A stretch of DNA of 64,000 bases from Acidobacteriota bacterium (GCA_022340775.1 JAJDNH010000073.1:12519-76518), one strand, 5' to 3'. Shown: positions 1,965-64,000, counted from the stretch's first letter. Notes: generated by a model from the sequence alone, not told the origin. Made by a program: numbers and translations.

Positions 1965-4577
1965 ATGAGCTCTGACAGCCTTCCAACGCGCTACGATCCG
2001 GAGAGCTTCGAGGGCCGCTGGTACTCGAAATGGGAAAGCTCCGGGGCGTTTTCACCAACACTCGAGGGAGACCGGCCTCCCTTCTGCATCGTCATCCCCC
2101 CGCCCAACGTCACCGGTGTTCTCCATATCGGCCATGCCCTGCAGTTCACGCTGCAAGATCTGATCATCCGCTGGCGGCGCATGCAGGGTTACGACGCACT
2201 CTGGCTGCCCGGCACGGACCACGCCGGCATCGCCACCCAGGTCATGGTCGAGCGCCAGCTGGCCAAAGAAGGAACCACTCGACAGGCCCTCGGGCGCGAC
2301 CGGTTCCTCGAACGGATGTGGCAGTGGAAGGAGGAACACAAGGACAACATCTCCCGCCAGGCGAAAGCGCTCGGCTCGTCGTGCGACTGGAGCCGCGAGA
2401 GGTTCACGCTCGACGACGGCCTGTCGCGAGCCGTTCGCCGCGCGTTCGTCACCCTCCACAGCCAGGGTCTCATCTACCGCGACCAGAGGCTGATCAACTG
2501 GTGCCCCCGCTGCCACACCGCACTCTCGGACCTCGAGGTCGTCCACAAGGAGCAGCAGGGGCGCATGTGGGACTTCGCCTACCCCCTCGAGGACGAGGGC
2601 GAGATCGTGGTCTCCACGACTCGACCGGAGACGATGCTCGGCGACACAGCGATCGCGGTCCACCCGGCCGACGGACGGTACTCCGGGCTGGTGGGATTCC
2701 ATGCCATCCACCCGTTCCTCGACCGCCGAGTGCCGCTAATCGCGGACGCCGAGCTGGTGGACCCCGAGTTCGGTACGGGCGCCGTCAAGGTGACTCCGGC
2801 ACACGACCCTAACGACTTCCAGACCGGCAAGCGTCATGAGCTCGAGTTCATCAACATCCTCGACAACGAGGGCAAGATCAACGACGCCGGCGGACAGTTT
2901 GCAGGCCAGGACCGGTTTGCTGCCCGCACAGCGGTGGTCCAGGCGCTCAAAGCGAAAGGCCTGCTACGGGGCGAGCGCCCGCACGAGATGGCCATCGGAC
3001 ACTGCCAGCGGTGTGACACGATCGTCGAGCCTCTCCTGTCCCGCCAGTGGTTCGTCGATGCCAAGCCGCTGGCGGAGAAGGCCCTCGAGGTTGTTCGTGA
3101 CGGCCGCGTCAAGGTCGTTCCCGACTTCTGGGTGGCGACCTACGAGCACTGGCTCGAGAACATCCAGGACTGGTGCATCTCCCGCCAGCTCTGGTGGGGG
3201 CACCGGATCCCCGCGTTCACATGCGCCCAGGGCCACCTCCTCGTGTGCGAGGAAGATCCCGACTCCTGTCCGACGTGCGGCCAGGCGGTGGAGCAGGACC
3301 CGGACGTTCTCGACACCTGGTTTTCATCCGGTCTGTGGCCGTTCTCGACCCTCGGATGGCCCGACGAAACCGAGGATCTGAAGCGGTTCTACCCGACCTC
3401 GGTGCTGATCACCGGGTTCGACATCCTGTTCTTCTGGGTGGCGCGGATGATCATGATGGGCTGCCACCTCACCGGCGAGGTCCCATTCCACGCCGTTCAC
3501 CTGACGGGTCTTGTCAGGGACGCGAGCGGCGACAAGATGTCCAAGACCAAGGGCAACACGATCGACCCACTGGAGGTCGTGTCCGAGTATGGCGCCGACG
3601 CAGTTCGGTTCACGCTCGCCGCTCTGGCCTCTCCCGGTCGGGATCTGCCGCTCGACATCCGGAGGATGGAGGGGTATCGGGCGTTCGCCACCAAGGTGTG
3701 GAACGCGGCCCGCTTCGTGCAGATGAAGCTGGAGGGTGACGAGCAGCCGCTCGGTGATCTTTCTCCCGCCGACCTCGGCCCCGCGGAGCGCTGGATCCTC
3801 TCCCGGCTGGCCCACACCGTGCGCAGCGTTAACCGCGCGTGGGAGTGCTACCGGTTCGACGAGGGTTGCCACGAGCTCTATCACTTCGTCTGGCACGCCT
3901 ACTGCGACTGGTACCTGGAGCTCGCAAAAGGGGTCACCGACCGGCGTGAGGTGCGCTCGGTCTTGCGGGGCGTGCTGCTCGAAGCGCTCAAGCTCCTTCA
4001 CCCAGTGATGCCCTACATCACTGAGGAGATCGGGCACCATCTGGGACATGAGGAGATGCTGATCCTCACTCGGTACCCGGACCCTGACGGACGGTGGGAG
4101 GACAACGAGCTGGAAGCCGATTTCTCGGCGCTTCAGGAGCTCGTGGCGGGCCTGCGCTCCTATCGAGCCATGGTCGGGCTCAGCCAGCGTCATCCGATCG
4201 CCGTAACGCTCGTCGGAGTGGACGAACACCGCGCTGGTTTCCTGACCTCGCAGACCGATCAGCTCGAGCAGCTGGCAGCCGTTGCATCGATCAGGCTCGG
4301 TACAGCACCGGCCCAGGCCATCCACGAGCTCCTCGGTGGCATGGAGGTGGCTCTCGAGCTACCGCCCGGCTCCCTGGGGGAGGATCAGCTAGTTCGGCTT
4401 CAGAAGCAGATCGAGCAGCTGGACCGCAACCGCGCCGGTCTCGAGGGGCGCCTATCGAACAGTAGCTTTACCGCGAAGGCGCCGCCGGAGGTCGTGGACG
4501 GCGCCCGGCAGCAACTCGCGGAGGTCACGACACGGCTCGAACGGCTTCGACAGACGATCGAGGCGAGCGCCGGGTGA
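1965..4577 (+). CDS. valS: Valine--tRNA ligase
   Basis: PPPNVTGVLHIGH (HIGH), WCISRQLWWGHRIP, DVLDTWFSS, KMSKTKGN (KMSKS-like), C-terminal coiled coil; SD AGGAGAGG before ATG 1965. Confidence 0.98.
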   Translation: MSSDSLPTRYDPESFEGRWYSKWESSGAFSPTLEGDRPPFCIVIPPPNVTGVLHIGHALQFTLQDLIIRWRRMQGYDALWLPGTDHAGIATQVMVERQLAKEGTTRQALGRDRFLERMWQWKEEHKDNISRQAKALGSSCDWSRERFTLDDGLSRAVRRAFVTLHSQGLIYRDQRLINWCPRCHTALSDLEVVHKEQQGRMWDFAYPLEDEGEIVVSTTRPETMLGDTAIAVHPADGRYSGLVGFHAIHPFLDRRVPLIADAELVDPEFGTGAVKVTPAHDPNDFQTGKRHELEFINILDNEGKINDAGGQFAGQDRFAARTAVVQALKAKGLLRGERPHEMAIGHCQRCDTIVEPLLSRQWFVDAKPLAEKALEVVRDGRVKVVPDFWVATYEHWLENIQDWCISRQLWWGHRIPAFTCAQGHLLVCEEDPDSCPTCGQAVEQDPDVLDTWFSSGLWPFSTLGWPDETEDLKRFYPTSVLITGFDILFFWVARMIMMGCHLTGEVPFHAVHLTGLVRDASGDKMSKTKGNTIDPLEVVSEYGADAVRFTLAALASPGRDLPLDIRRMEGYRAFATKVWNAARFVQMKLEGDEQPLGDLSPADLGPAERWILSRLAHTVRSVNRAWECYRFDEGCHELYHFVWHAYCDWYLELAKGVTDRREVRSVLRGVLLEALKLLHPVMPYITEEIGHHLGHEEMLILTRYPDPDGRWEDNELEADFSALQELVAGLRSYRAMVGLSQRHPIAVTLVGVDEHRAGFLTSQTDQLEQLAAVASIRLGTAPAQAIHELLGGMEVALELPPGSLGEDQLVRLQKQIEQLDRNRAGLEGRLSNSSFTAKAPPEVVDGARQQLAEVTTRLERLRQTIEASAG

Positions 4578-52829: not shown

Positions 52830-53624
52830 TCAAACGAGCGTGTTGGACGCCGGCTCGGCGTCGGTCCCGTAGATCTCCCGGAAGGTGCCGCGGTCAAAGT
52901 CCCCCGGCGGTCCTTCGTAGACGATATGGCCGTCGCGAAGTGCGGCCAGGCGGGTCGCGTAGCGTTTGACGAGATCGATGTCGTGAAGCGAGCAGATCAC
53001 CGTCAACCCTTCCTCCTTGCTCAGCTGCTCGATCTGACGCATCAGAGAGTGGCGCAGCGCCGGGTCGAGGGAAGCGACCGGTTCGTCCGCAAGGATCACG
53101 CGCGGCCTCTGAACGAGGGCCCGTGCGACGGCGACACGCTGCTGCTGACCGCCCGACAGCGCGTCAGCCCGGCTCGCGCCACGGTCCCTCAGCCCCATCC
53201 GAGCCAGAGCCGCAAGCGCCTGTTCTCGCTCCACTGCCGGGTACCTCAGGAAGAGGCTCGGCAGAAGGGGACTGCGACCGAGGCTGCCGGAGAGTACGTT
53301 CGTCAGGACCGAGTGCCGCTTCACCAGGTTGAACTGCTGGAAGATCATGGCCACCTGTCGCCTCAGCTGGCGCAGCCTGGCCCCCTCGGCGGCCGTCATC
53401 TCATCGTCGAAGATCCACACCCTGCCCAAGGTCGGGTCGACGAGTCGGTTGATGCAGCGCAGCAACGTCGACTTCCCTGATCCTGACAGCCCCAGAACAA
53501 CCAGAAACTCGCCCTCGCGCACCTCGAGGCTGACGTCGGTCAGCGCCTGCACGCCCCCTGGGTACACCTTGCAGACACCTTGGAGGCGAACAGCCACCCT
53601 TCCACCACCGGGCGGTGCGTTCAC
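52830..53624 (-). CDS. phnC: Phosphonate ABC transporter ATP-binding protein
   Basis: GLSGSGKST, MIFQQFNLV, LSGGQQQRV, LADEPVASLDP. Confidence 0.92.
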   Translation of the reverse strand: MNAPPGGGRVAVRLQGVCKVYPGGVQALTDVSLEVREGEFLVVLGLSGSGKSTLLRCINRLVDPTLGRVWIFDDEMTAAEGARLRQLRRQVAMIFQQFNLVKRHSVLTNVLSGSLGRSPLLPSLFLRYPAVEREQALAALARMGLRDRGASRADALSGGQQQRVAVARALVQRPRVILADEPVASLDPALRHSLMRQIEQLSKEEGLTVICSLHDIDLVKRYATRLAALRDGHIVYEGPPGDFDRGTFREIYGTDAEPASNTLV

Positions 53625-55039
53625 GAGCCACTCCCCTTCCCGGCTTTGCGCTTCTTGAGCTTCGCCTCCTCGGCCTCGAGCACCTTGGTTGCGCTAACCC
53701 CGGACTGCCTGAGCGCCTCGCGGAACCGGTCGAAGTCCGAGTCCCCGCACGGTGCCGCCGCCACGCCGGCCACCAGGTCGTGATAGGCCAGCTGGCCCTC
53801 CTCCGTCTTCAGAAAGCGCTGTAGAGAGGTTTCGAACCGCTCCCACGTGCGGCGTGGAAAACCCTTGCGCACACAGCAGACATCGTTGGGAATCGGATCG
53901 GTGAGGGCAATGATCCGCACCTCATCGAGCAGACGCCGCCGTGCCTCGTCATCCGGCAAACGCTTGATGATCAGCCTTCTGGCATCCCCGACCAGCGTAT
54001 GGTCACGGACCTCGCGCTCGCCCGGAGGCGAGTAGAAGGCCGCACCGCCGGCTACTTTGCCGTCGAGGACGGCCTGGACCACGTTCGGGTGGCCGCCCGC
54101 GAAGTAGACGTGACCAAGGTGCACCGAGGCGCGATTGAGAAGGGCGCGGGCAAAGATGTGACCCGAGGTCGAGGTTTCGTCCGAAAAAGCAAACGACCGG
54201 CCGTTGAGATCGGCGAGCGTACGGACACCGGAGTCGGTGCGAGTCAGGATGCACCCGTTGTAGGTCGTGGTCAGCTGGGCAACCGGATCCTCGGTGACGT
54301 CGATAACGCGGGTTTCTCGGAGTGTTCCCGGGCGTTCGGCCTCGAGCTCCTTGCGTCCGTCGCCGATCAGGTCGTGCGGACCCGAGAAGACGTGGCTCGA
54401 GACGGCGGCGTCCACCCGGCCGGGTGACTCCACCATCTGTCGGACTGCCGCAAGGTCGCTGTCGACGGGAACCTCCACCCAGCCTCGGGCCGACCTGTTG
54501 AGCCGCCGCGTGACCTCGCGCCGCAGCTCGGCTTTCAGGTTACGCGGCACGGCGATCCTCCGCCCGGCGAGGCCGGCGAGCGACGTCGGCTCCCCCGGTC
54601 CATCGCGGGTTACGACAATCGCGAACAGGTCGAGGGAACGCACAACTTGCAGACGCGCCTCGGCACCGTAGCGGGCATGAGCCAGGACGTAGGCAAAGGC
54701 TGGGATCCATGCCACATCGGCCTGTCCGGTTCCGAGCGCCTGGATCACCGCTGCATAGCTGGTCGGCACCTCCGAGCGGAGCATCAGGCCGCAGTCGGAG
54801 CGAATGAAACGCGCCAGCTCGTCACCCCTCCGGACCAGGGTCCCCTGCTCCACTGACGGCACGAAGAGCATTCGGATCATCCCACTGTTCGCGTCCTCCA
54901 GACGCGAACGGTGGTGCAGACCGGCCAGAAACAGGACAAGGAGGAGGGCCGCGACGGCCCAGCCGATCCGGGACAACCACAGCCCGCGATGCGGGCGCGG
55001 ACTTGTCGGTTCTTCGGGTTGCGGGGTTGATGACCTCAT
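53621..55039 (-). CDS. phnD: PhnD/PtxB-like substrate-binding protein with internally duplicated second lobe
   Basis: MLFVPS, PTSYAAVIQAL, TSTSGH, AGGHPNVV, DPIPND; 472 aa with N-terminal TM anchor. Confidence 0.8.
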   Translation of the reverse strand: MRSSTPQPEEPTSPRPHRGLWLSRIGWAVAALLLVLFLAGLHHRSRLEDANSGMIRMLFVPSVEQGTLVRRGDELARFIRSDCGLMLRSEVPTSYAAVIQALGTGQADVAWIPAFAYVLAHARYGAEARLQVVRSLDLFAIVVTRDGPGEPTSLAGLAGRRIAVPRNLKAELRREVTRRLNRSARGWVEVPVDSDLAAVRQMVESPGRVDAAVSSHVFSGPHDLIGDGRKELEAERPGTLRETRVIDVTEDPVAQLTTTYNGCILTRTDSGVRTLADLNGRSFAFSDETSTSGHIFARALLNRASVHLGHVYFAGGHPNVVQAVLDGKVAGGAAFYSPPGEREVRDHTLVGDARRLIIKRLPDDEARRRLLDEVRIIALTDPIPNDVCCVRKGFPRRTWERFETSLQRFLKTEEGQLAYHDLVAGVAAAPCGDSDFDRFREALRQSGVSATKVLEAEEAKLKKRKAGKGSGS

Positions 55040-56634: not shown

Positions 56635-59600
56635 TCATCGTAGCAAAGGTCCCGCCGTCCCGGCCGAACGTGGGAGCTCGAGACACACGACCAGGCCCTT
56701 CGCACCGTTGGCGGCAGTCACCGACCCATGGCAGCGCGAAACGACCTGTCGCACGAGGGCAAGCCCGAGCCCGGTTCCCGAGGAGGTCGTCGAGAAGTGA
56801 GGGTTGAAGAGGTCGTGAAGCTGGTCCGGCGGCACGCCGCCACCGGTGTCCCGAACCTCGATGGTGACCGTGTCAGCCGTACAGCGCGCTCGGACCGTGA
56901 TCTCGCCTGGACCTTCATCCACGGCGTCGACGCTGTTCTGAATCAGGTTGCCGAGCGCGCGACGGAGCCACTGCCGGTCCCCAACCACCGAGCAACGACC
57001 GCAGCCAGAGGTGTCGCGGACCAGGTGAATGCCACGCCTTTGCAGTATCCCGAGCCCACTCAGCGCCGAGTCGATAAGGTCGGTCACGGCCACCTCCTCG
57101 GCCTCCCAGCGCTCGAGCGCTACGAGGTTCGAGAATGACGATGCCATCTGCTGAAGCCGTTCGACCTGAGTTGTGATCTCCACACACGCCTCACGCAACA
57201 GGACGTCCCTGTCCTGATCACGGCGCGCCATGGCGTCCTCCAGCTCCTGAACCCAGAGCCGTATCGGAGTCAGCGGGTTCTTGACCTCGTGGGCAACGAT
57301 CCTGGCCAGCTGGGCCAGCTGCTGGAGCCGATCCGCCCGCACGACGTCGCTGACGTCGTCCACCACCGCTACCAGACCTCGGGTTCCATCGGGCAGCGGC
57401 ACTCCGGCCACCCCAAGTCTCCACGTCACGTCCGTCCCCGGAAACGGCTGCACCGTGACCACGACTGGCCGGCCGTCTTCGCCGGAGCGCTCCGCAAGCT
57501 CCGTGACGTGACGTACCACGACGTCGCCCTCAGCCTCCAGCAGCGTCTTGGCACTCGGGTTGGCGAAGCGGACAGTGGAATCCGCGTCGAGTACCAGAAC
57601 CGCCTGGGCCAGTGTCGAAAGCGTGATCCGCAGCAGCTCCTCCTGTGAGCGCAAGCTGGTTTCACGACGTTGTACCTCGAGACTCATGAGTTGAACCGCG
57701 TCGAGCACTTCTGCGAGATCGCGCTCGGCTGGCCGCGGAACCTGGCCGACCGGATCGCCACGCTGCAGCCGTCTCGCCAGCTCGACCAAGTCTCGTAGCG
57801 AGGCGCCAACTCTTCCTTCCACTCTGGACGTGACGAAGAGCGTCAGCATCGCCGAGAGGAGGGCTCCAACCAGGAGCCAGTCGATGACGCCGGGGACCGC
57901 CTGGCGCCGCACTGGATCGGCTAGGAACATTTCGAGAAGCAGCGACCGGCCCTCGATACTCACACCGCCGGCTGCCAGTAGCTGCCTTCCCGTCCGACGG
58001 ACCACCGGGTCGGACCGTCCGAGCTGGAAGCGTGAGAACGCCACCGGATCCGGCAGGCCGGGGAGAGCCCCTACCGTCAGCAGGTCCGGGCGCGAGGTGG
58101 CGGCGACGTTGGCACCGTCGAACAGCACGACCTCTCCACCAACCTGACGCGCTAGCCACTTGGCGAGGTCCGCGTTGACCGGGAGCCCACCTTCGAGGTG
58201 CTGGGAAGTCCACCGTGCCGCCTGAATGCCGTCGCCGCCAATGACTCGGGCCAAGCGCACCTCTTCCTGGCGGAGGCGCTGGTGGAGGAAAAGTGTCAGA
58301 AGCACCAGGGGAAGAACCACACCGCCCACGACCAGCAGGCGCAGCCGACCGCCGAAGGTCGATAGGCTGTCCCTCCGCAGACGCGGGGGAAAGGCGATCA
58401 GGAGTGCGACTGCCGCCCACAGAGAGGCTAGGAGCGAACGAAGCAGCCAGACAGGCAGCGAAGGGTAGTTCGCAACTGCCGCCACCAGCCAGTCGCCGTG
58501 ACGAGCGACATGGGCCAGCCTCCGATCAGAGCCGATGCCGACGAGGACCCATCCACCACCGGCATGAAAGAGCTTTCCCGCTACCTCGGGCCCAAGTCCA
58601 CGGATCTCCTCCCGCTCCGACGCGACCGCATGTCCCGCCCGTGTCAGCGCCGCGAACCAGACCGCCGCGGCTGCTCCATCGAGGGTAACTCCCCCTGCTG
58701 GCCATCCGCGCAGCCACGACCACGGTGGAACCGCCGCCCACAGCTGCGCCGTCCCCACTGCCGTCGTCGCCGAGCTGAGCGCCCACGTGCGGAGCAGCCT
58801 CGTCGACTCGCGCCCCACATTCAGCACGCCCCAGCGGGAGATCTCCGCCCCCTCAGGATCTACAACGACCAGCATCACCGGGCGCTGCCAGCGATCCAGC
58901 TTCCATTGCTTCGCCAGTACCGGCGCAAGGTCCGAGAGGTGACATGCCGGCAGCGGTGCCGGCAGGAGATCCCCCAAGTCCAAGGTCGCTGCCGGCGGCG
59001 ACGGTGCTGTCCGCAACTCCTCGGCAGCCTGAATCTGCTCGGGCACGCGGAGGCCTTGCGTCACCGCCATCAGCACGCCCACGCTCAGGGGAATCACCAA
59101 CCGGGCTCGTGGCCACTGCCGGCGGCGCAGGTCGTAGCGCAGCCAGCCCGTCGCCAGCCAGGCGGCAGCAACGGCCCAGGCGGCTCCCCACCCGGGCCGA
59201 AAGACCGTTCTGGGAAGCCACTCGGCGACCACCGTGCTCGGGAGCAGCAGCGCGCTGACCGGGATCGCGGCCATCGCCGTCAGCACCAGCAGCCGGGCCG
59301 GCGCAGCCGGCAGGTTGCGCGCACAGCGCCAGATTGCGGACCCTCCGAGAAGGAGACCCAAGCCGACGACTAACGGTGGCACGGCATGCCAGGCCAGCCC
59401 GGCCGCTAGCCCACCGGCCACGACGGCGGTTGGAGCGAGCGACGGCAGCCACACGGTTCCAATCAGGATGAGTATCCCCCACGGCAACCACCGCGCCGGG
59501 GCTGGCCCGGGCAGTGCCTCTCGTCTCAGGGCTACGGGGATCGAGACACCTGGAAATCGATCAGCCTGGACGAGGTCGCGCGCCTGGTTTCCGGCGGTGC

Positions 59601-60264
59601 CGAGCGACAGCAGCCAGCCGCGCCCCACCCGCATTCCCCAGATCGAGTGGGCGAGCAGCGGCGAACGGTCAACCACGGTCACGGCTCCCACCAGCCGGCC
59701 CTCGAACATCACAGGCTCACGAACGGCCAACGCCGCCGACCCCGCCCACCAGGTCACGCTCCACCGCCGTTGCCCGATCGGACGAACGCCAGGGGGCAGT
59801 TCTCTCGCCACGCCACTCCATGCCACCAGCTGCCCCCGGTCGTCAGACAGGTAGGCACTGCGGCCGGAGGAGCGCCCGACCATCCGGTCCAGAGCTCTGA
59901 ACAGACGCTCCGGGTCGGCGACCTCGCCGGTGGCGGCAAAAACACGCCGGACCTCTCCACTCACCGCCACTCGGCTGGCGTCGCCGAGCATCCCCTCGCA
60001 GTGCTCGGACAGTCGATCCGCAAGCTGTTGCCGGTCTGGAGGATGCGGGTGCCACCCGATGGCCAACGGTACCGCCAAGATGACCGCTGCCCAGGGCACC
60101 AGGGCACGGTGCCTCGGACGCGCCAACACGGCCAGACCAGCCACCACCGCGGCCAGAGCTAGCGGCGTCGGCGCCCACCCCGGCCAGGGCCCGCACACGA
60201 CGACGGCCGCCAAGGCCAGCCACCATGATCGTGTCAACGATGCACGACCACCACCGGGGTCCAT
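56635..60264 (-). CDS. Large multi-TM sensor histidine kinase (NtrY-like HAMP-PAS-HisKA-HATPase)
   Basis: VAHEVKNPLTPI, NLIQNSVDA, DTGGGV, FSTTSSGTGLGL; about 850 aa membrane/extracytoplasmic N-terminus. Confidence 0.92.
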   Translation of the reverse strand: MDPGGGRASLTRSWWLALAAVVVCGPWPGWAPTPLALAAVVAGLAVLARPRHRALVPWAAVILAVPLAIGWHPHPPDRQQLADRLSEHCEGMLGDASRVAVSGEVRRVFAATGEVADPERLFRALDRMVGRSSGRSAYLSDDRGQLVAWSGVARELPPGVRPIGQRRWSVTWWAGSAALAVREPVMFEGRLVGAVTVVDRSPLLAHSIWGMRVGRGWLLSLGTAGNQARDLVQADRFPGVSIPVALRREALPGPAPARWLPWGILILIGTVWLPSLAPTAVVAGGLAAGLAWHAVPPLVVGLGLLLGGSAIWRCARNLPAAPARLLVLTAMAAIPVSALLLPSTVVAEWLPRTVFRPGWGAAWAVAAAWLATGWLRYDLRRRQWPRARLVIPLSVGVLMAVTQGLRVPEQIQAAEELRTAPSPPAATLDLGDLLPAPLPACHLSDLAPVLAKQWKLDRWQRPVMLVVVDPEGAEISRWGVLNVGRESTRLLRTWALSSATTAVGTAQLWAAVPPWSWLRGWPAGGVTLDGAAAAVWFAALTRAGHAVASEREEIRGLGPEVAGKLFHAGGGWVLVGIGSDRRLAHVARHGDWLVAAVANYPSLPVWLLRSLLASLWAAVALLIAFPPRLRRDSLSTFGGRLRLLVVGGVVLPLVLLTLFLHQRLRQEEVRLARVIGGDGIQAARWTSQHLEGGLPVNADLAKWLARQVGGEVVLFDGANVAATSRPDLLTVGALPGLPDPVAFSRFQLGRSDPVVRRTGRQLLAAGGVSIEGRSLLLEMFLADPVRRQAVPGVIDWLLVGALLSAMLTLFVTSRVEGRVGASLRDLVELARRLQRGDPVGQVPRPAERDLAEVLDAVQLMSLEVQRRETSLRSQEELLRITLSTLAQAVLVLDADSTVRFANPSAKTLLEAEGDVVVRHVTELAERSGEDGRPVVVTVQPFPGTDVTWRLGVAGVPLPDGTRGLVAVVDDVSDVVRADRLQQLAQLARIVAHEVKNPLTPIRLWVQELEDAMARRDQDRDVLLREACVEITTQVERLQQMASSFSNLVALERWEAEEVAVTDLIDSALSGLGILQRRGIHLVRDTSGCGRCSVVGDRQWLRRALGNLIQNSVDAVDEGPGEITVRARCTADTVTIEVRDTGGGVPPDQLHDLFNPHFSTTSSGTGLGLALVRQVVSRCHGSVTAANGAKGLVVCLELPRSAGTAGPLLR

Positions 60265-60271
60265 GGCAAGC

Positions 60272-60277
60272 AGTATA
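60272..60277 (-). promoter_or_regulatory. Putative -10 hexamer TATACT, 7 nt before kinase ATG (leaderless)
   Basis: Minus strand TATACT-gcttgcc-ATG(60264). Confidence 0.5.
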
Positions 60278-60291
60278 GCGAGGGTCCGCGA

Positions 60292-60300
60292 TGCTAACAT
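60292..60300 (+). promoter_or_regulatory. Putative extended -10 promoter (TGcTAACAT) for gatE-gatD
   Basis: TG-n-TAnnnT about 35 nt upstream of ATG 60336, which has a GGAGG SD. Confidence 0.45.
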
Positions 60301-60335
60301 CGGCCGACGTGCCGCTTGACGTCACGCGGAGGACC

Positions 60336-62300
60336 ATGAGCACAGCCTTCGACTACGCCGCCGCCGGTCTCAAAGTTGGTCTCGAAGTTCATCAGCAGCT
60401 TCTCACCCAGGAGAAGCTCTTCTGCCGGTGCCCCGCGGGAATGTACACGTCACAGCACGACGGCTCGGTCCTGCGCCACATGCGGCCGACACTGTCCGAG
60501 CTCGGCGAATATGATGGGACCGCACTGATGGAGTTCAAGACCAAAAAGAACATCATCTACCTACTGCACGAGTCCAACGTCTGCACCTACGAGATGGACG
60601 ACACGCCGCCGTTCCTGCTCAATCCACGCGCCCTCGACATCGCCATCGAGCAGTGCCTGATGCTGGGATGCGACATCGTTGACGAGGTTCACATCGCTCG
60701 CAAGCAGTACCTCGATGGTTCGATCCCCACCGGCTTCCAGCGCACAGCAGTAGTTGGCGTCGCCGGCCGCATCCCCTTCCAAGGCCGAGAGCTCACCATC
60801 ACTCAGGTCACGCTCGAGGAGGACAGCTGTCGCGAGGTCTCGGACCGCGGCCACCTCATCGTATGGCGCACCGACCGGCTGGGAATGCCCCTCATTGAGA
60901 CCGTGACCGCACCGGACCTGAGGACCCCGGAAGAGGTCGAGGAGGCCATTCTCCTCATTGGACGCGTATGCCGCTCAACCGGCCATGTCCGTGTCGGGAT
61001 CGGCGCCAGTCGGCAGGACGTCAACGTCTCGGTCACCGGTGGTCGCCGGGTTGAGATCAAGGGCGTGTCAAAGGCCGGCTGGGCCCGCAAACTGGTGCAC
61101 ACGGAGGCGATTCGGCAGGTCAGGTTGCTCGAGCTTCGCGACGAGCTCCACCGGCGCGGCCTGACTCGACCTGCCGACATCGGCATCGAGCATTTCGACG
61201 TCACGGATCTGTTCGTCGCCTCCGAGCTGAGCCAGCTGCGCAGGGAATCGTGGCAGAGGTTGATCGACGAGGAAGGGCGCAGGCCCGGTTTCGAGCTCGG
61301 CCGCGGACCATTCAGCGTCAGGGCCGTTCGCCTACCGGGTCTGGCCGGGACAATCTCTCACCCGACTCAGCCGGGGCTCACGTTCGCTCACGAGCTCGCC
61401 GGACGGATCCGCGTCATCGCCACCCTCGACCAGCAGCCAACGCTTTTCCATAGTGAGAAGTGGCCTGACTACGCGGAATCCCGGGTCGAGTTCGACCGCC
61501 TCCTGCGCCGAACGGCTTGTGGGCCGGACGACGCCATCGTGGTCGTCTGGGGCGCCGAGGAGGACACCGTCACCGCTGCCGAGGAGGTACGGATCCGGTA
61601 TGCCGACGCCACCGACGGCGTCCCCCACGAGACCCGGCAGCCACTGCCGGACGGGAGGACCGACTTCGAACGGATCCTGCCAGGCCCGGACCGGATGTAC
61701 CCCGATACCGACAGCCCGCCGCAGCGGCTGATGCCTGAGCGGATCGAGCAGCTCCGGGCGCCCCTGCCACCAGCTCCCTGGGTACGCGAGGGACGTTATG
61801 CCGCCGCGGGCATCCCTCGCTCCACGATTCGCTACCTCATCCGGCGCGGCGGTGCGCGGCTCGTGGACCTGGTGGTGAACGAGGGGGGCGCCGACCTCCG
61901 GCGTGCGTGCTTCCTCTTCGGAGAGGAGCTCAAGGCGCTCCGTCGCCGGGGCCTCGGCATCGATCGGATCGCCGACGCCCAATGGCTCAGGTTCTTCGAG
62001 ATCCTTGAAAGCTCACCGGTCATCTGGGAAGCCCGATCGAGGCTGGTCGAGGTGATGGCGGGGTCGCCCGCCACCGATCCCGGAGAGCTGGCTTCCAGCC
62101 TGGACCTCGGGAACGCCCCCGAAGGATGGCGCGAACGGGTCGTCAGCCTCGCGCGCACCTCGGTGCTCGATCACTCAAACGGTAGGCCCGGCCAGCGTCT
62201 CCGATTCCTGATGGGTCTGGCGATGTACGAGCTGAGAGGGAAGGTCTCGGCCCACGCAGTCGAAAACCTCCTGCTGGAGGAGCTGGGAGGTGCTCAATGA
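60336..62300 (+). CDS. gatE: Glu-tRNA(Gln) amidotransferase subunit E (archaeal type)
   Basis: GLKVGLEVHQQL, DGSIPTGFQRT, LEEDSCR, DRLGMPLIE, RQDVNVSV, RVEIKGV, AspRS-like insertion, LPGPDRMYPDTD, YqeY-like tail LMG.AM.ELRGK. Confidence 0.93.
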   Translation: MSTAFDYAAAGLKVGLEVHQQLLTQEKLFCRCPAGMYTSQHDGSVLRHMRPTLSELGEYDGTALMEFKTKKNIIYLLHESNVCTYEMDDTPPFLLNPRALDIAIEQCLMLGCDIVDEVHIARKQYLDGSIPTGFQRTAVVGVAGRIPFQGRELTITQVTLEEDSCREVSDRGHLIVWRTDRLGMPLIETVTAPDLRTPEEVEEAILLIGRVCRSTGHVRVGIGASRQDVNVSVTGGRRVEIKGVSKAGWARKLVHTEAIRQVRLLELRDELHRRGLTRPADIGIEHFDVTDLFVASELSQLRRESWQRLIDEEGRRPGFELGRGPFSVRAVRLPGLAGTISHPTQPGLTFAHELAGRIRVIATLDQQPTLFHSEKWPDYAESRVEFDRLLRRTACGPDDAIVVVWGAEEDTVTAAEEVRIRYADATDGVPHETRQPLPDGRTDFERILPGPDRMYPDTDSPPQRLMPERIEQLRAPLPPAPWVREGRYAAAGIPRSTIRYLIRRGGARLVDLVVNEGGADLRRACFLFGEELKALRRRGLGIDRIADAQWLRFFEILESSPVIWEARSRLVEVMAGSPATDPGELASSLDLGNAPEGWRERVVSLARTSVLDHSNGRPGQRLRFLMGLAMYELRGKVSAHAVENLLLEELGGAQ

Positions 62301-63688
62301 GCTGCTCCGATGAGCTGAAGGGCTACCGGGGAAGGGCGCGCCAGCGTCTCGGCGAGTGGGGTGTCCGTGTATGGAGCGATGTGCGGGTCACCAATACTGC
62401 TGGGTCGGTCTTCGAGGGCGTCATCCTGCCACGATCGGAGACGTTCGACGACCTCCACCTGGTTCTCAAGCTCCACAACGGCTACAACGTCGGGGTCCAC
62501 GTCGATCGAATCTCGACGATCGAGGAAATCGGGTATCGCGAGGCGGTCTACAAGATCCCGGAGAAGGAGTTCCCGGCCCGCCCCGACCTTCCCAAGGTGA
62601 CGCTTCTCGGCACCGGCGGTACGATCGCGTCACGTCTCGACTACCGCACCGGAGCGGTCATCCCCGCCTTCACCCCGGGGGAGCTGTACGGCGCCGTGCC
62701 CGAGCTCGCCGACCTGTGCAACCTGACGACCAAGAAGATCTTCGGCGTGTTCTCCGAGAACATGTCGTGGCCCGAGTACGCCACGCTCGCGGGAGCCATC
62801 GGCGAGGAGATCGAGGCAGGCGCTGACGGCATCGTCATCGGCCACGGCACCGACACAATGGGACACACGGCAGCGATCCTGAGTTTCATGGTGCAGAACC
62901 TGCCGGTACCAGTCGTTCTTGTCGGCAGCCAGCGCAGCTCCGACAGGCCCTCGTCCGATGCCGCCCTCAACCTCATCCACGCCGTTCGTGCAGCCGCCTA
63001 CGGCGACATCGCAGAAGTGCAGATCTGCATGTTCGGACCGACTTCGGACCGCTATGCCCTGCTTCACCGCGGCACCCGATGCCGAAAGATGCACAGCTCC
63101 TACCGGTCGACCTTCCGCACTGTCGGCGACACACCGTTGTGCCTCGTCAGTCGGGACGAGTTCACGATTCTGAACGGCGACTACGCCAGACGTGATAGCG
63201 AGCGGCAGGTTCGGATAGATCCCACCTATGACGATCGCGTTACGATCCTCTACTACTACCCAGGCATGAAGCCGGACCTCGTGGACGCCCTTGTCGACAG
63301 GGGCTACCGCGGAATCGTCATCGCCGGAACCGGTCTCGGCCACGTCAACAAGCCTCTTTACCCGGCCCTCGAGCGGGCCGTACGGGCGGGCGTCCAGGTC
63401 ATGATGACCGTCCAAACTCTGTGGGGCTACGCGCAGATGTACGTGTACGACACCGGCCGCGATCTCCTCGATCTCGGAGTCGTCCCCCTCGACAACATGT
63501 TGCCGGAAACCGCACTGATGAAGCTGGGTTGGGTGCTCGGCCACACGGACCAGCACGCCGAGGTAAAACGCCTCATGCAGACCCCCATCAGCCACGAGAT
63601 CACCGCACGCGAGCCGCACAACGGCTACCTCATCCTGCAGGGCGGCTTGCCCGAGGTCGAGGACTTCATCACGAGCCACTGGAAGTGA
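62297..63688 (+). CDS. gatD: Glu-tRNA(Gln) amidotransferase subunit D (asparaginase-like glutaminase, archaeal type)
   Basis: GatD N-domain FEGVILPRSE...LKLHNGYNVGV; TGGTIASRLDYRTGAV, HGTDTM, VGSQRSSDRPSSDA, RKMHSS; ATGA overlap with gatE. Confidence 0.93.
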   Translation: MSCSDELKGYRGRARQRLGEWGVRVWSDVRVTNTAGSVFEGVILPRSETFDDLHLVLKLHNGYNVGVHVDRISTIEEIGYREAVYKIPEKEFPARPDLPKVTLLGTGGTIASRLDYRTGAVIPAFTPGELYGAVPELADLCNLTTKKIFGVFSENMSWPEYATLAGAIGEEIEAGADGIVIGHGTDTMGHTAAILSFMVQNLPVPVVLVGSQRSSDRPSSDAALNLIHAVRAAAYGDIAEVQICMFGPTSDRYALLHRGTRCRKMHSSYRSTFRTVGDTPLCLVSRDEFTILNGDYARRDSERQVRIDPTYDDRVTILYYYPGMKPDLVDALVDRGYRGIVIAGTGLGHVNKPLYPALERAVRAGVQVMMTVQTLWGYAQMYVYDTGRDLLDLGVVPLDNMLPETALMKLGWVLGHTDQHAEVKRLMQTPISHEITAREPHNGYLILQGGLPEVEDFITSHWK

Positions 63689-63736: not shown

Positions 63737-64000
63737 ATGTCGTTGCCGGACCGTCCATCGGGTTGTGATGGGTTCTCGATCCTGGAGCTCGTGGCGGCAC
63801 TGGCCATTCTCGGCTTTGCCATCCTCGTGACGGCTGCGGTGTTGAGCACCGAGTCAGACCGTGCAGCGCGGCTGGCCGCGCGACACCAAGCCGTGCACGC
63901 ATTGGAGGCCACACTCGAGGATGTTCGCGCCGGCATCGTCCCGTTGCAGTCGAGCTCGCCCCAGACTGGAGAGATCGTCCAGCCAGCGGCAGCCGACAAC
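63737..64000 (+). CDS. Prepilin-type (type IV pilin / T2SS pseudopilin) protein, 3'-truncated; absent from the ORF track
   Basis: Hand translation MSLPDRPSGCDG|FSILELVAALAILGFAILV...; G|F cleavage site and Glu5; open to window end. Confidence 0.85.
   Translation, partial: MSLPDRPSGCDGFSILELVAALAILGFAILVTAAVLSTESDRAARLAARHQAVHALEATLEDVRAGIVPLQSSSPQTGEIVQPAAADN

Follow-up and report, generated by a model that had tools for sequence, protein, structure and literature searches.

The gatE-gatD gene pair

The window analyzed here is a 64,000-nucleotide stretch of an Acidobacteriota genome, bases 12519 to 76518 of an 80.6-kb contig, and it carries on its plus strand two genes, gatE (60336-62300) and gatD (62297-63688), which, as judged from the sequence, form a genuine, complete, and functional-looking GatDE tRNA-dependent amidotransferase pair in a bacterium. 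GatDE is stated to occur “exclusively in archaea” (PMC2811023); reviews up to 2022 describe it as archaea-only, and it has been used as a marker of that domain in discussions of how glutamine decoding first evolved (PMC9499178, PMC2811023). Databases already annotate proteins of the bacterial clade as GatE and GatD. Full-text literature searches for a bacterial GatDE found nothing relevant, and the statement made in an earlier, sequence-only reading of this DNA, that such an enzyme is uncharacterized, agrees with the lack of any paper describing one in those searches.

The gatE product of 654 residues comprises a cradle domain, an AspRS-like insertion, a helical domain, and a YqeY-like tail, and from its family it would be the kinase/amidotransferase subunit. 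From an alternative in-frame start codon, the ATG at 60291, the protein would be 15 residues longer (669); the start at 60336 agrees with the beginnings of homologues and with the archaeal alignments. The protein scores above the cut-offs of the NCBIfam equivalogs NF003107 (475 bits; cut-off 456) and TIGR00134 (411 bits; cut-off 320), whereas GatB models give just 56 to 137 bits against cut-offs above 314 (137 versus 338 for the best); it thus sorts with GatE and not with GatB, one of the points on which the sequence-only reading had made its claim depend. It aligns end to end with the archaeal chains 1ZQ1_C (E = 1e-95) and 2D6F_C. A Foldseek search with an AlphaFold2 model (predicted local distance difference test score 88, predicted template modeling score 0.84) placed 1ZQ1_C and 2D6F at the top, with template modeling (TM) scores of 0.78 to 0.80, followed by GatB chains, which share the cradle domain (TM 0.58 to 0.75); weak local matches to bacterial AspRS are consistent with an AspRS-like insertion domain. 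The presence of this insertion, proposed beforehand as the mark that separates GatE from GatB, is borne out by the full-length archaeal alignments and the local AspRS matches; relative to archaeal GatE, the host protein has a 12-residue insert within it. The proposal of a YqeY-like tail fared less evenly: the full-length alignment to archaeal GatE supports it, but the Pfam GatB_Yqey match is weak and below its cut-off (20.4 versus 27 bits). The length of 654 residues and the cradle motifs GLEVHQQL, LEEDSCR, and DRLGMPLIE were both as first read, and the patterns GLE[VI]HQQL, EED[SA]CRE, and DRLGxPLxE are kept throughout the bacterial copies as well as in 1ZQ1 and 2D6F (84 GatE sequences compared).

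The gatD product (463 residues) is predicted to be the asparaginase-fold, ammonia-generating subunit with a GatD-specific N-domain. It reaches 498 bits with TIGR02153 (cut-off 324), matches Pfam GatD_N, Asparaginase, and Asparaginase_C, and aligns over its full length to the archaeal structures 1ZQ1 and 2D6F (1ZQ1_A, E = 6e-122). The motifs TGGT, HGTDT, and RKMH are all found, and T109, T185, D186, and K264 align to T101, T177, D178, and K254 of the Methanothermobacter thermautotrophicus protein, which we take from the mutagenesis literature to be the catalytic residues. T109, T185, and K264 show no variation among the 80 GatD sequences compared, and D186 lies inside HGTDT and is kept in every listed variant of that motif. 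These profile matches and residue alignments sustain what had been read by eye, namely a GatD-specific N-domain joined to asparaginase catalytic residues. A stand-alone type I L-asparaginase model also scores on the protein (355 bits), but the GatD models score higher (497 to 498 bits), and together with the GatD_N domain and the translational coupling to gatE this rules out a free type I L-asparaginase. The coupling takes the form of an ATGA overlap between the gatE stop and the gatD start (62297-62300, plus strand); the open reading frame (ORF) coordinates confirm both this overlap and the E-then-D order, which is shared by 72 of the 83 related loci that hold both genes.

Both genes are under strong purifying selection. 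Compared with the copies in a same-genus genome, the ratio of nonsynonymous to synonymous substitution rates (dN/dS) is 0.12 for gatE and 0.04 for gatD, with 0.22 for GluRS as a reference, and GatD identity between phyla is 63 to 94%.

The host, a bacterium of soil or sediment type, is a Thermoanaerobaculia metagenome-assembled genome (MAG) of 3.83 Mb in 251 contigs, with 66.6% GC, a completeness of 93%, and a contamination of 0%. A MAG in this many pieces leaves some room for an assembly chimera or archaeal contamination. We nevertheless regard either as extremely unlikely, because the region from 55086 to 65065, covering the flanking kinase, gatE, gatD, and pseudopilin genes, is collinear with the same-genus genome at 75 to 79% nucleotide identity, with alignments that cross both operon borders, and because the relative's order of histidine kinase, gatE, gatD, and pseudopilins is found in four independent assemblies. 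The gene pair also lies in the interior of its contig and is host-like in composition: GC at third codon positions (GC3) is 0.80 in gatE and 0.83 in gatD, within the 0.72 to 0.85 of neighboring ORFs, which bears out the earlier remark on host-like, GC-rich codons. Moreover, GatE is found above cut-off in 28 of the 61 genomes of the host's family and order that were sampled (the host and 60 relatives). The placement of the operon in a bacterial chromosome, as first claimed, therefore stands, and the borders, where a chimera would have been expected to show, are spanned by same-genus alignments.

Synthetase complement and distribution

Profile searches of the host genome found GlnRS (649 bits, at a contig end and adjoining the single GluRS), AsnRS (462 bits), one copy of a bacterial-type AspRS, and LysRS. 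The genome search found no GatB, the model matching gatE alone (88 bits versus a cut-off of 315), and no GatA, the best match being an amidase-family ORF (199 bits versus 481) whose N-terminus, by eye, resembles a signal-peptide leader. AsnB-like proteins are present below the strict AsnB equivalog cut-off (NF006949, 306 bits versus 499) and are of uncertain subfamily. There are two tRNA(Gln) genes (UUG and CUG), both with U1-A72 and G73, and tRNA(Asn) likewise has U1-A72/G73; the expectation of a bacterial U1-A72 pair in tRNA(Gln), as against the archaeal A1-U72, is thus correct for this host. Since GlnRS, AsnRS, and one GluRS are present, and relatives without GatDE have the same set, GatDE is not required for decoding in the host and is an accessory rather than the main route to Gln-tRNA(Gln). 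Two proposals of the sequence-only reading fall here: GatDE as the organism's bacterial Gln-tRNA route, and a division of labor with a GatCAB confined to Asn, for which the host lacks GatA and the host and all 60 relatives (0 of 61) lack GatB. In the host's own genome, tRNA-Ser, gltX, and glnS are consecutive (G000:C193:27217-30371), and gltX and glnS are adjacent in most relatives too.

Besides the 28 order genomes with GatE above cut-off, 3 hold fragmentary copies (G029, G054, and G058), and presence is patchy even inside genera. GlnRS (57 of 61) and a single GluRS (59 of 61) occur independently of GatDE, and AsnB-family synthases pass the TIGR01536 cut-off in 60 of 61 genomes, again unrelated to GatDE. 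Because GatDE is patchy while these enzymes are nearly universal irrespective of it, GatDE is an accessory gene in the host's order. The idea that GatDE-bearing relatives have lost Asn synthetase is not supported by the AsnB-family counts, which follow no such pattern.

Beyond the order, more than 8000 proteins in a protein database search match GatE strongly, and relatives are encoded at no fewer than 589 loci of species-representative genomes, under titles that include Acidobacteriota, Myxococcota, Planctomycetota, Bacteroidota, Ignavibacteriota, Chlorobiota, Eisenbacteria, KSB1, and others. A single inter-domain transfer into this organism, as first suggested, does not describe this distribution, with thousands of bacterial proteins in one clade and nearly half of the host's order carrying the gene; a bacterial clade so large and strongly conserved contradicts the statement that GatDE is confined to archaea.

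We sampled 50 GatDE-bearing genomes across phyla, 48 bacterial and 2 labeled archaeal. GlnRS is present in 42 of the 48 bacteria (40 above cut-off and 2 fragmented), AsnRS in 44 of the 48, and GatB above cut-off in 24 of the genomes sampled. Six bacteria are without GlnRS; three of these have GatCAB, and three (G092, G109, and the small, 2.3-Mb G087) are without both. The latter three are explicable by MAG incompleteness, and none of the 50 genomes makes a solid case for Gln-tRNA(Gln) being formed through GatDE alone. With the clade nearly always beside GlnRS and AsnRS, the lack of a synthetase, which is the usual reason for retaining an amidotransferase, does not account for it; either repair or back-up of mischarged tRNA(Gln) matters to bacteria far more than expected, or the enzyme serves some new tRNA.

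Two side observations concern this sample. In a Holophagaceae genome with a 5.7-Mb contig, GlnRS and GatB each lie in several adjacent frame-shifted pieces (G080:C1:2404607-2406198 and 2670124-2671400), one piece has an in-frame TGA, and gatE-gatD is shortened in L051; these may be long-read frameshift errors or genuine decay. Four loci titled Deltaproteobacteria, Pseudomonadota, or Myxococcales (L023, L025, L035, and L036) have a GatE nested in the Acidobacteriota subclade, at 65 to 68% identity to the host's, and are either mislabeled MAGs or products of recent inter-phylum transfer.

tRNA neighbors, tRNA-reading elements, and origin

The neighborhood of gatE was surveyed for tRNA genes at about 170 loci, including an independent set of 80 metagenome loci. 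A tRNA-Gln(CUG) gene lies 120 nt upstream of gatE, divergent, in L023, and L047 (Holophagaceae) has one on the gatE strand, 70 nt upstream, with U1-A72 and with A73 instead of G73. A near-identical gene lies 69 nt upstream of gatE in L050 (Holophagaceae MAG bog_363, positions 4188-4263), and it has the anticodon CUA, like an amber suppressor, C at position 37, and U1-A72 with A73, unlike the G73 of the host tRNA(Gln); a terminator-like hairpin stands between this tRNA gene and gatE. A divergent tRNA-Asn gene is found 124 nt upstream of gatE in L019, from genome G038 of the host's order. The independent metagenome set agrees with these findings: L196, with a GatE that shares 85% identity with the L019 protein, has a tRNA-Asn gene 134 nt upstream, and tRNA-Gln(CUG) sits directly downstream of gatE in the archaeal members L240 and L258. 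All of the gatE-adjacent tRNA-Gln genes are thus the CUG isoacceptor or its derivative, and a single other tRNA gene (Arg, 359 nt away) occurs within 400 nt of gatE over the whole survey. Given 3 amide-tRNA genes per genome of about 4 Mb, chance adjacency is estimated at about 2e-4 per locus, so four independent adjacency events far exceed chance and support a tie between GatDE and the two tRNAs served by amidotransferases. The host itself has no tRNA gene near gatE.

GatE has two tRNA-reading elements, one of which is a short positive loop by the first base pair (PMC2811023). In that loop, the archaeal KVKRGLGT corresponds to HVRVGIGA in the host with its length kept; the host's subclade reads HVR[VT]G there, and other subclades KVRRG. 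At the tail, the host has PGQRLRF opposite the archaeal GMGAMG and lacks the motif GXXAXGX, and across the clade this position is occupied by variable Q/R-rich strings with no conserved motif. The changed loop and the lost tail motif would suit an enzyme adapted to bacterial tRNAs, and tRNA(Gln) and tRNA(Asn) may be told apart less strictly; given the loss of GXXAXGX, tRNA discrimination may differ from that of archaeal GatDE. Altered tRNA recognition had been raised as a possibility beforehand, and both tRNA-reading elements are indeed altered.

In GatB-rooted trees, the host GatE falls in one “bacterial-type” clade with support of 100, which also includes an archaeal Thermoplasmatota subclade (L069, L240, and L258; GC 33 to 34%). 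The Thermoplasmatota copies are like the bacterial clade in being nested within it and in lacking GXXAXGX; unlike the host, they have an archaeal-type tRNA-Gln(CUG) gene by gatE, and their gatD diverges from gatE instead of following it. The tRNA genes of L240 and L258 have no encoded CCA, and that of L258 has A1-U72/A73. Among the Thermoplasmatota-labeled or similar loci (L069, L070, L240, and L258; GC 33 to 37%), gatD is divergent from gatE in L069 and L070, and a glutamine synthetase gene directly follows gatE in L069. The bin that holds L069 (G102) also has a bacterial-type GlnRS (743 bits). The notion that L069 is mis-binned was dropped, since an archaeal-type tRNA-Gln adjoins near-identical gatE copies.

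In free tree searches, a GatE cluster including a Heimdallarchaeota protein (TET29438.1) is sister to the bacterial-type clade, with Shimodaira-Hasegawa-like approximate likelihood ratio support of 98 to 99; this cluster and the Thermoplasmatota copies are the nearest archaeal sequences to the bacterial clade. A tree in which the Heimdall cluster is grouped with the remaining archaeal sequences exceeds the free quick-search tree by 23.8 log-likelihood units and is not rejected by the approximately unbiased (AU) test (p-AU 0.78). The Heimdallarchaeota sister position, and with it an Asgard origin, is therefore not robust, and on these alignments the data would fit an old transfer from archaea to bacteria as well as a deep sister lineage. 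As for the sequence-only proposal of an old, ameliorated inter-domain transfer, the genes are indeed old and host-like, but the trees and the AU test do not settle direction and age.

Proposed role, alternatives, and flanking genes

We consider it somewhat probable that the pair encodes an active, accessory, two-subunit GatDE-type enzyme that amidates Glu-tRNA(Gln) beside GlnRS, in a repair or back-up role. By analogy with the family, GatD, through Thr109, Thr185, Asp186, and Lys264, would free ammonia from glutamine or asparagine; GatE, with ATP, would phosphorylate the side-chain carboxylate of glutamate misattached to tRNA(Gln) and then amidate it to give Gln-tRNA(Gln). The Glu-tRNA(Gln) would come from the single host GluRS, and the bacterial-type U1-A72 tRNA(Gln) would be recognized through the remodeled tRNA-reading elements. 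The gain to the cell may be repair of a toxic mischarged tRNA or a supply of Gln-tRNA under some condition.

Several points weigh against this role. The host already has GlnRS, which leaves a second route without an obvious benefit. Its tRNA(Gln) carries U1-A72/G73 and not the A1-U72 that archaeal GatDE reads, and the archaeal tail motif is missing. The role presumes that the host GluRS mischarges tRNA(Gln), and a scan of the GluRS alignment for columns that track GatDE presence found none (best p = 3e-4 in 636 tests, with phylogeny confounding). The host GluRS has Arg at the position of Thermus thermophilus R358, as do all 58 GluRSs of relatives with or without GatDE; this residue is uninformative either way, and we dropped it as a criterion of discrimination after Arg aligned there in two of the three control genomes that lack GlnRS and carry GatCAB.

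The enzyme might also, or mainly, use Asp-tRNA(Asn), with a dual Asp/Glu specificity like that of bacterial GatCAB and with Asn synthesis beside AsnRS as its purpose. Other bacteria with both GlnRS and AsnRS are known to keep an amidotransferase for making Asn (PMC4206432), U1-A72/G73 is common to the host tRNA(Asn) and tRNA(Gln), the host AsnB-like proteins fall short of the strict cut-off, and the tRNA-Asn genes 124 to 134 nt upstream of gatE belong to a lineage of the host's own order. Nevertheless, archaeal GatDE does not act on Asp-tRNA(Asn) (PMC2330236), AsnB-family proteins are found in nearly all relatives without regard to GatDE, half of the GatDE-bearing bacteria also carry a GatCAB already able to do that job, and the tRNA neighbors of gatE are mostly tRNA-Gln, so that we think this rather unlikely. 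A dedicated or unusual tRNA, such as a tRNA(Gln)(CUG) variant or suppressor that is poorly charged by GlnRS, or a use of the aminoacyl-tRNA outside translation, would suit the Holophagaceae genes with A73 and a CUA anticodon, the restriction of gatE-adjacent tRNA-Gln to CUG or its derivative, and the coexistence of complete direct routes in nearly all genomes examined. We hold it to be decidedly unlikely; the host shows just two ordinary U1-A72/G73 tRNA(Gln) genes, neither near gatE, although another could be missed in a MAG that is 93% complete.

The patchiness within genera, the fragmented copies, and the lack of any genomic dependency on GatDE would all be expected of a gene pair left over from a former indirect pathway, superfluous beside GlnRS, devoid of present function, and decaying or drifting neutrally toward loss. 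Such decay is very unlikely in view of the low dN/dS values (0.04 to 0.12), the intact coupled operon, the invariance of the three GatD catalytic columns counted (T109, T185, and K264) in 80 sequences, the conservation of the GatE catalytic motifs in 84, and the high GatD identity between phyla. A broader possibility, which we judge unlikely, is that of a re-targeted amidotransferase, rather than a redundant copy of the archaeal pathway, with a relaxed or new tRNA choice, for tRNA(Gln)(CUG) variants poorly read by GlnRS (A73, or even CUA) and/or tRNA(Asn). If it held, bacteria with GlnRS and AsnRS would gain a separate, conditional charging route for particular tRNAs, and the pattern of a direct route plus GatDE would extend to the Thermoplasmatota and Heimdall relatives.

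Whichever tRNA is served, the enzyme has the same subunits, the same domain order, and identical catalytic sites as the archaeal GatDE of M. thermautotrophicus (2D6F, with tRNA-Gln) and Pyrococcus abyssi (1ZQ1). It differs in its fixed gatE-gatD gene order with overlap, its changed loop, lost tail motif, and 12-residue insert, and in its setting, a bacterium with GlnRS and AsnRS and a tRNA(Gln) with U1-A72/G73 rather than the archaeal A1-U72/A73. Like the GatCAB of T. thermophilus, Deinococcus radiodurans, and Bdellovibrio bacteriovorus, it is an amidotransferase kept despite both direct synthetases (PMC4206432); unlike GatCAB, it has an asparaginase-type GatD in place of the amidase-type GatA, and no GatC. 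Retention of GatCAB in those bacteria is explained by missing AsnA/AsnB, whereas AsnB-family proteins are widespread among the relatives studied here.

A Shine-Dalgarno-like GGAGGA (60328-60333, plus strand) ends 2 nt 5' of the gatE ATG, in keeping with the bacterial ribosome-binding site of the sequence-only reading; the extended -10 proposed with it was not recovered, a promoter and terminator scan of the locus giving no promoter at its position. An Rfam search of the window gave no match, and no neighbor other than gatD is conserved around gatE in related loci. The flanks, which we place outside the system, are bacterial, as had been recognized. Upstream and divergent is a membrane histidine kinase of 1221 residues (56635-60300, minus strand; Pfam HisKA and HATPase_c), also the neighbor in the same-genus genome. 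Downstream, the start of a set of pseudopilin-like genes occupies 63737-64000 (plus strand), with a prepilin-type hydrophobic N-terminus; their syntenic counterparts in the same-genus relative have a weak N_methyl match. The gap between the kinase start (60300) and the gatE start, in the region 60264-60336, is just 35 nt, so that the gatE promoter has to be located within the kinase ORF unless the kinase starts further in. Upstream of the kinase, at 52830-55039, a by-eye reading of the translations suggests a phosphonate/phosphite-type ABC transporter pair, an ATPase and a PhnD-like periplasmic binding protein.

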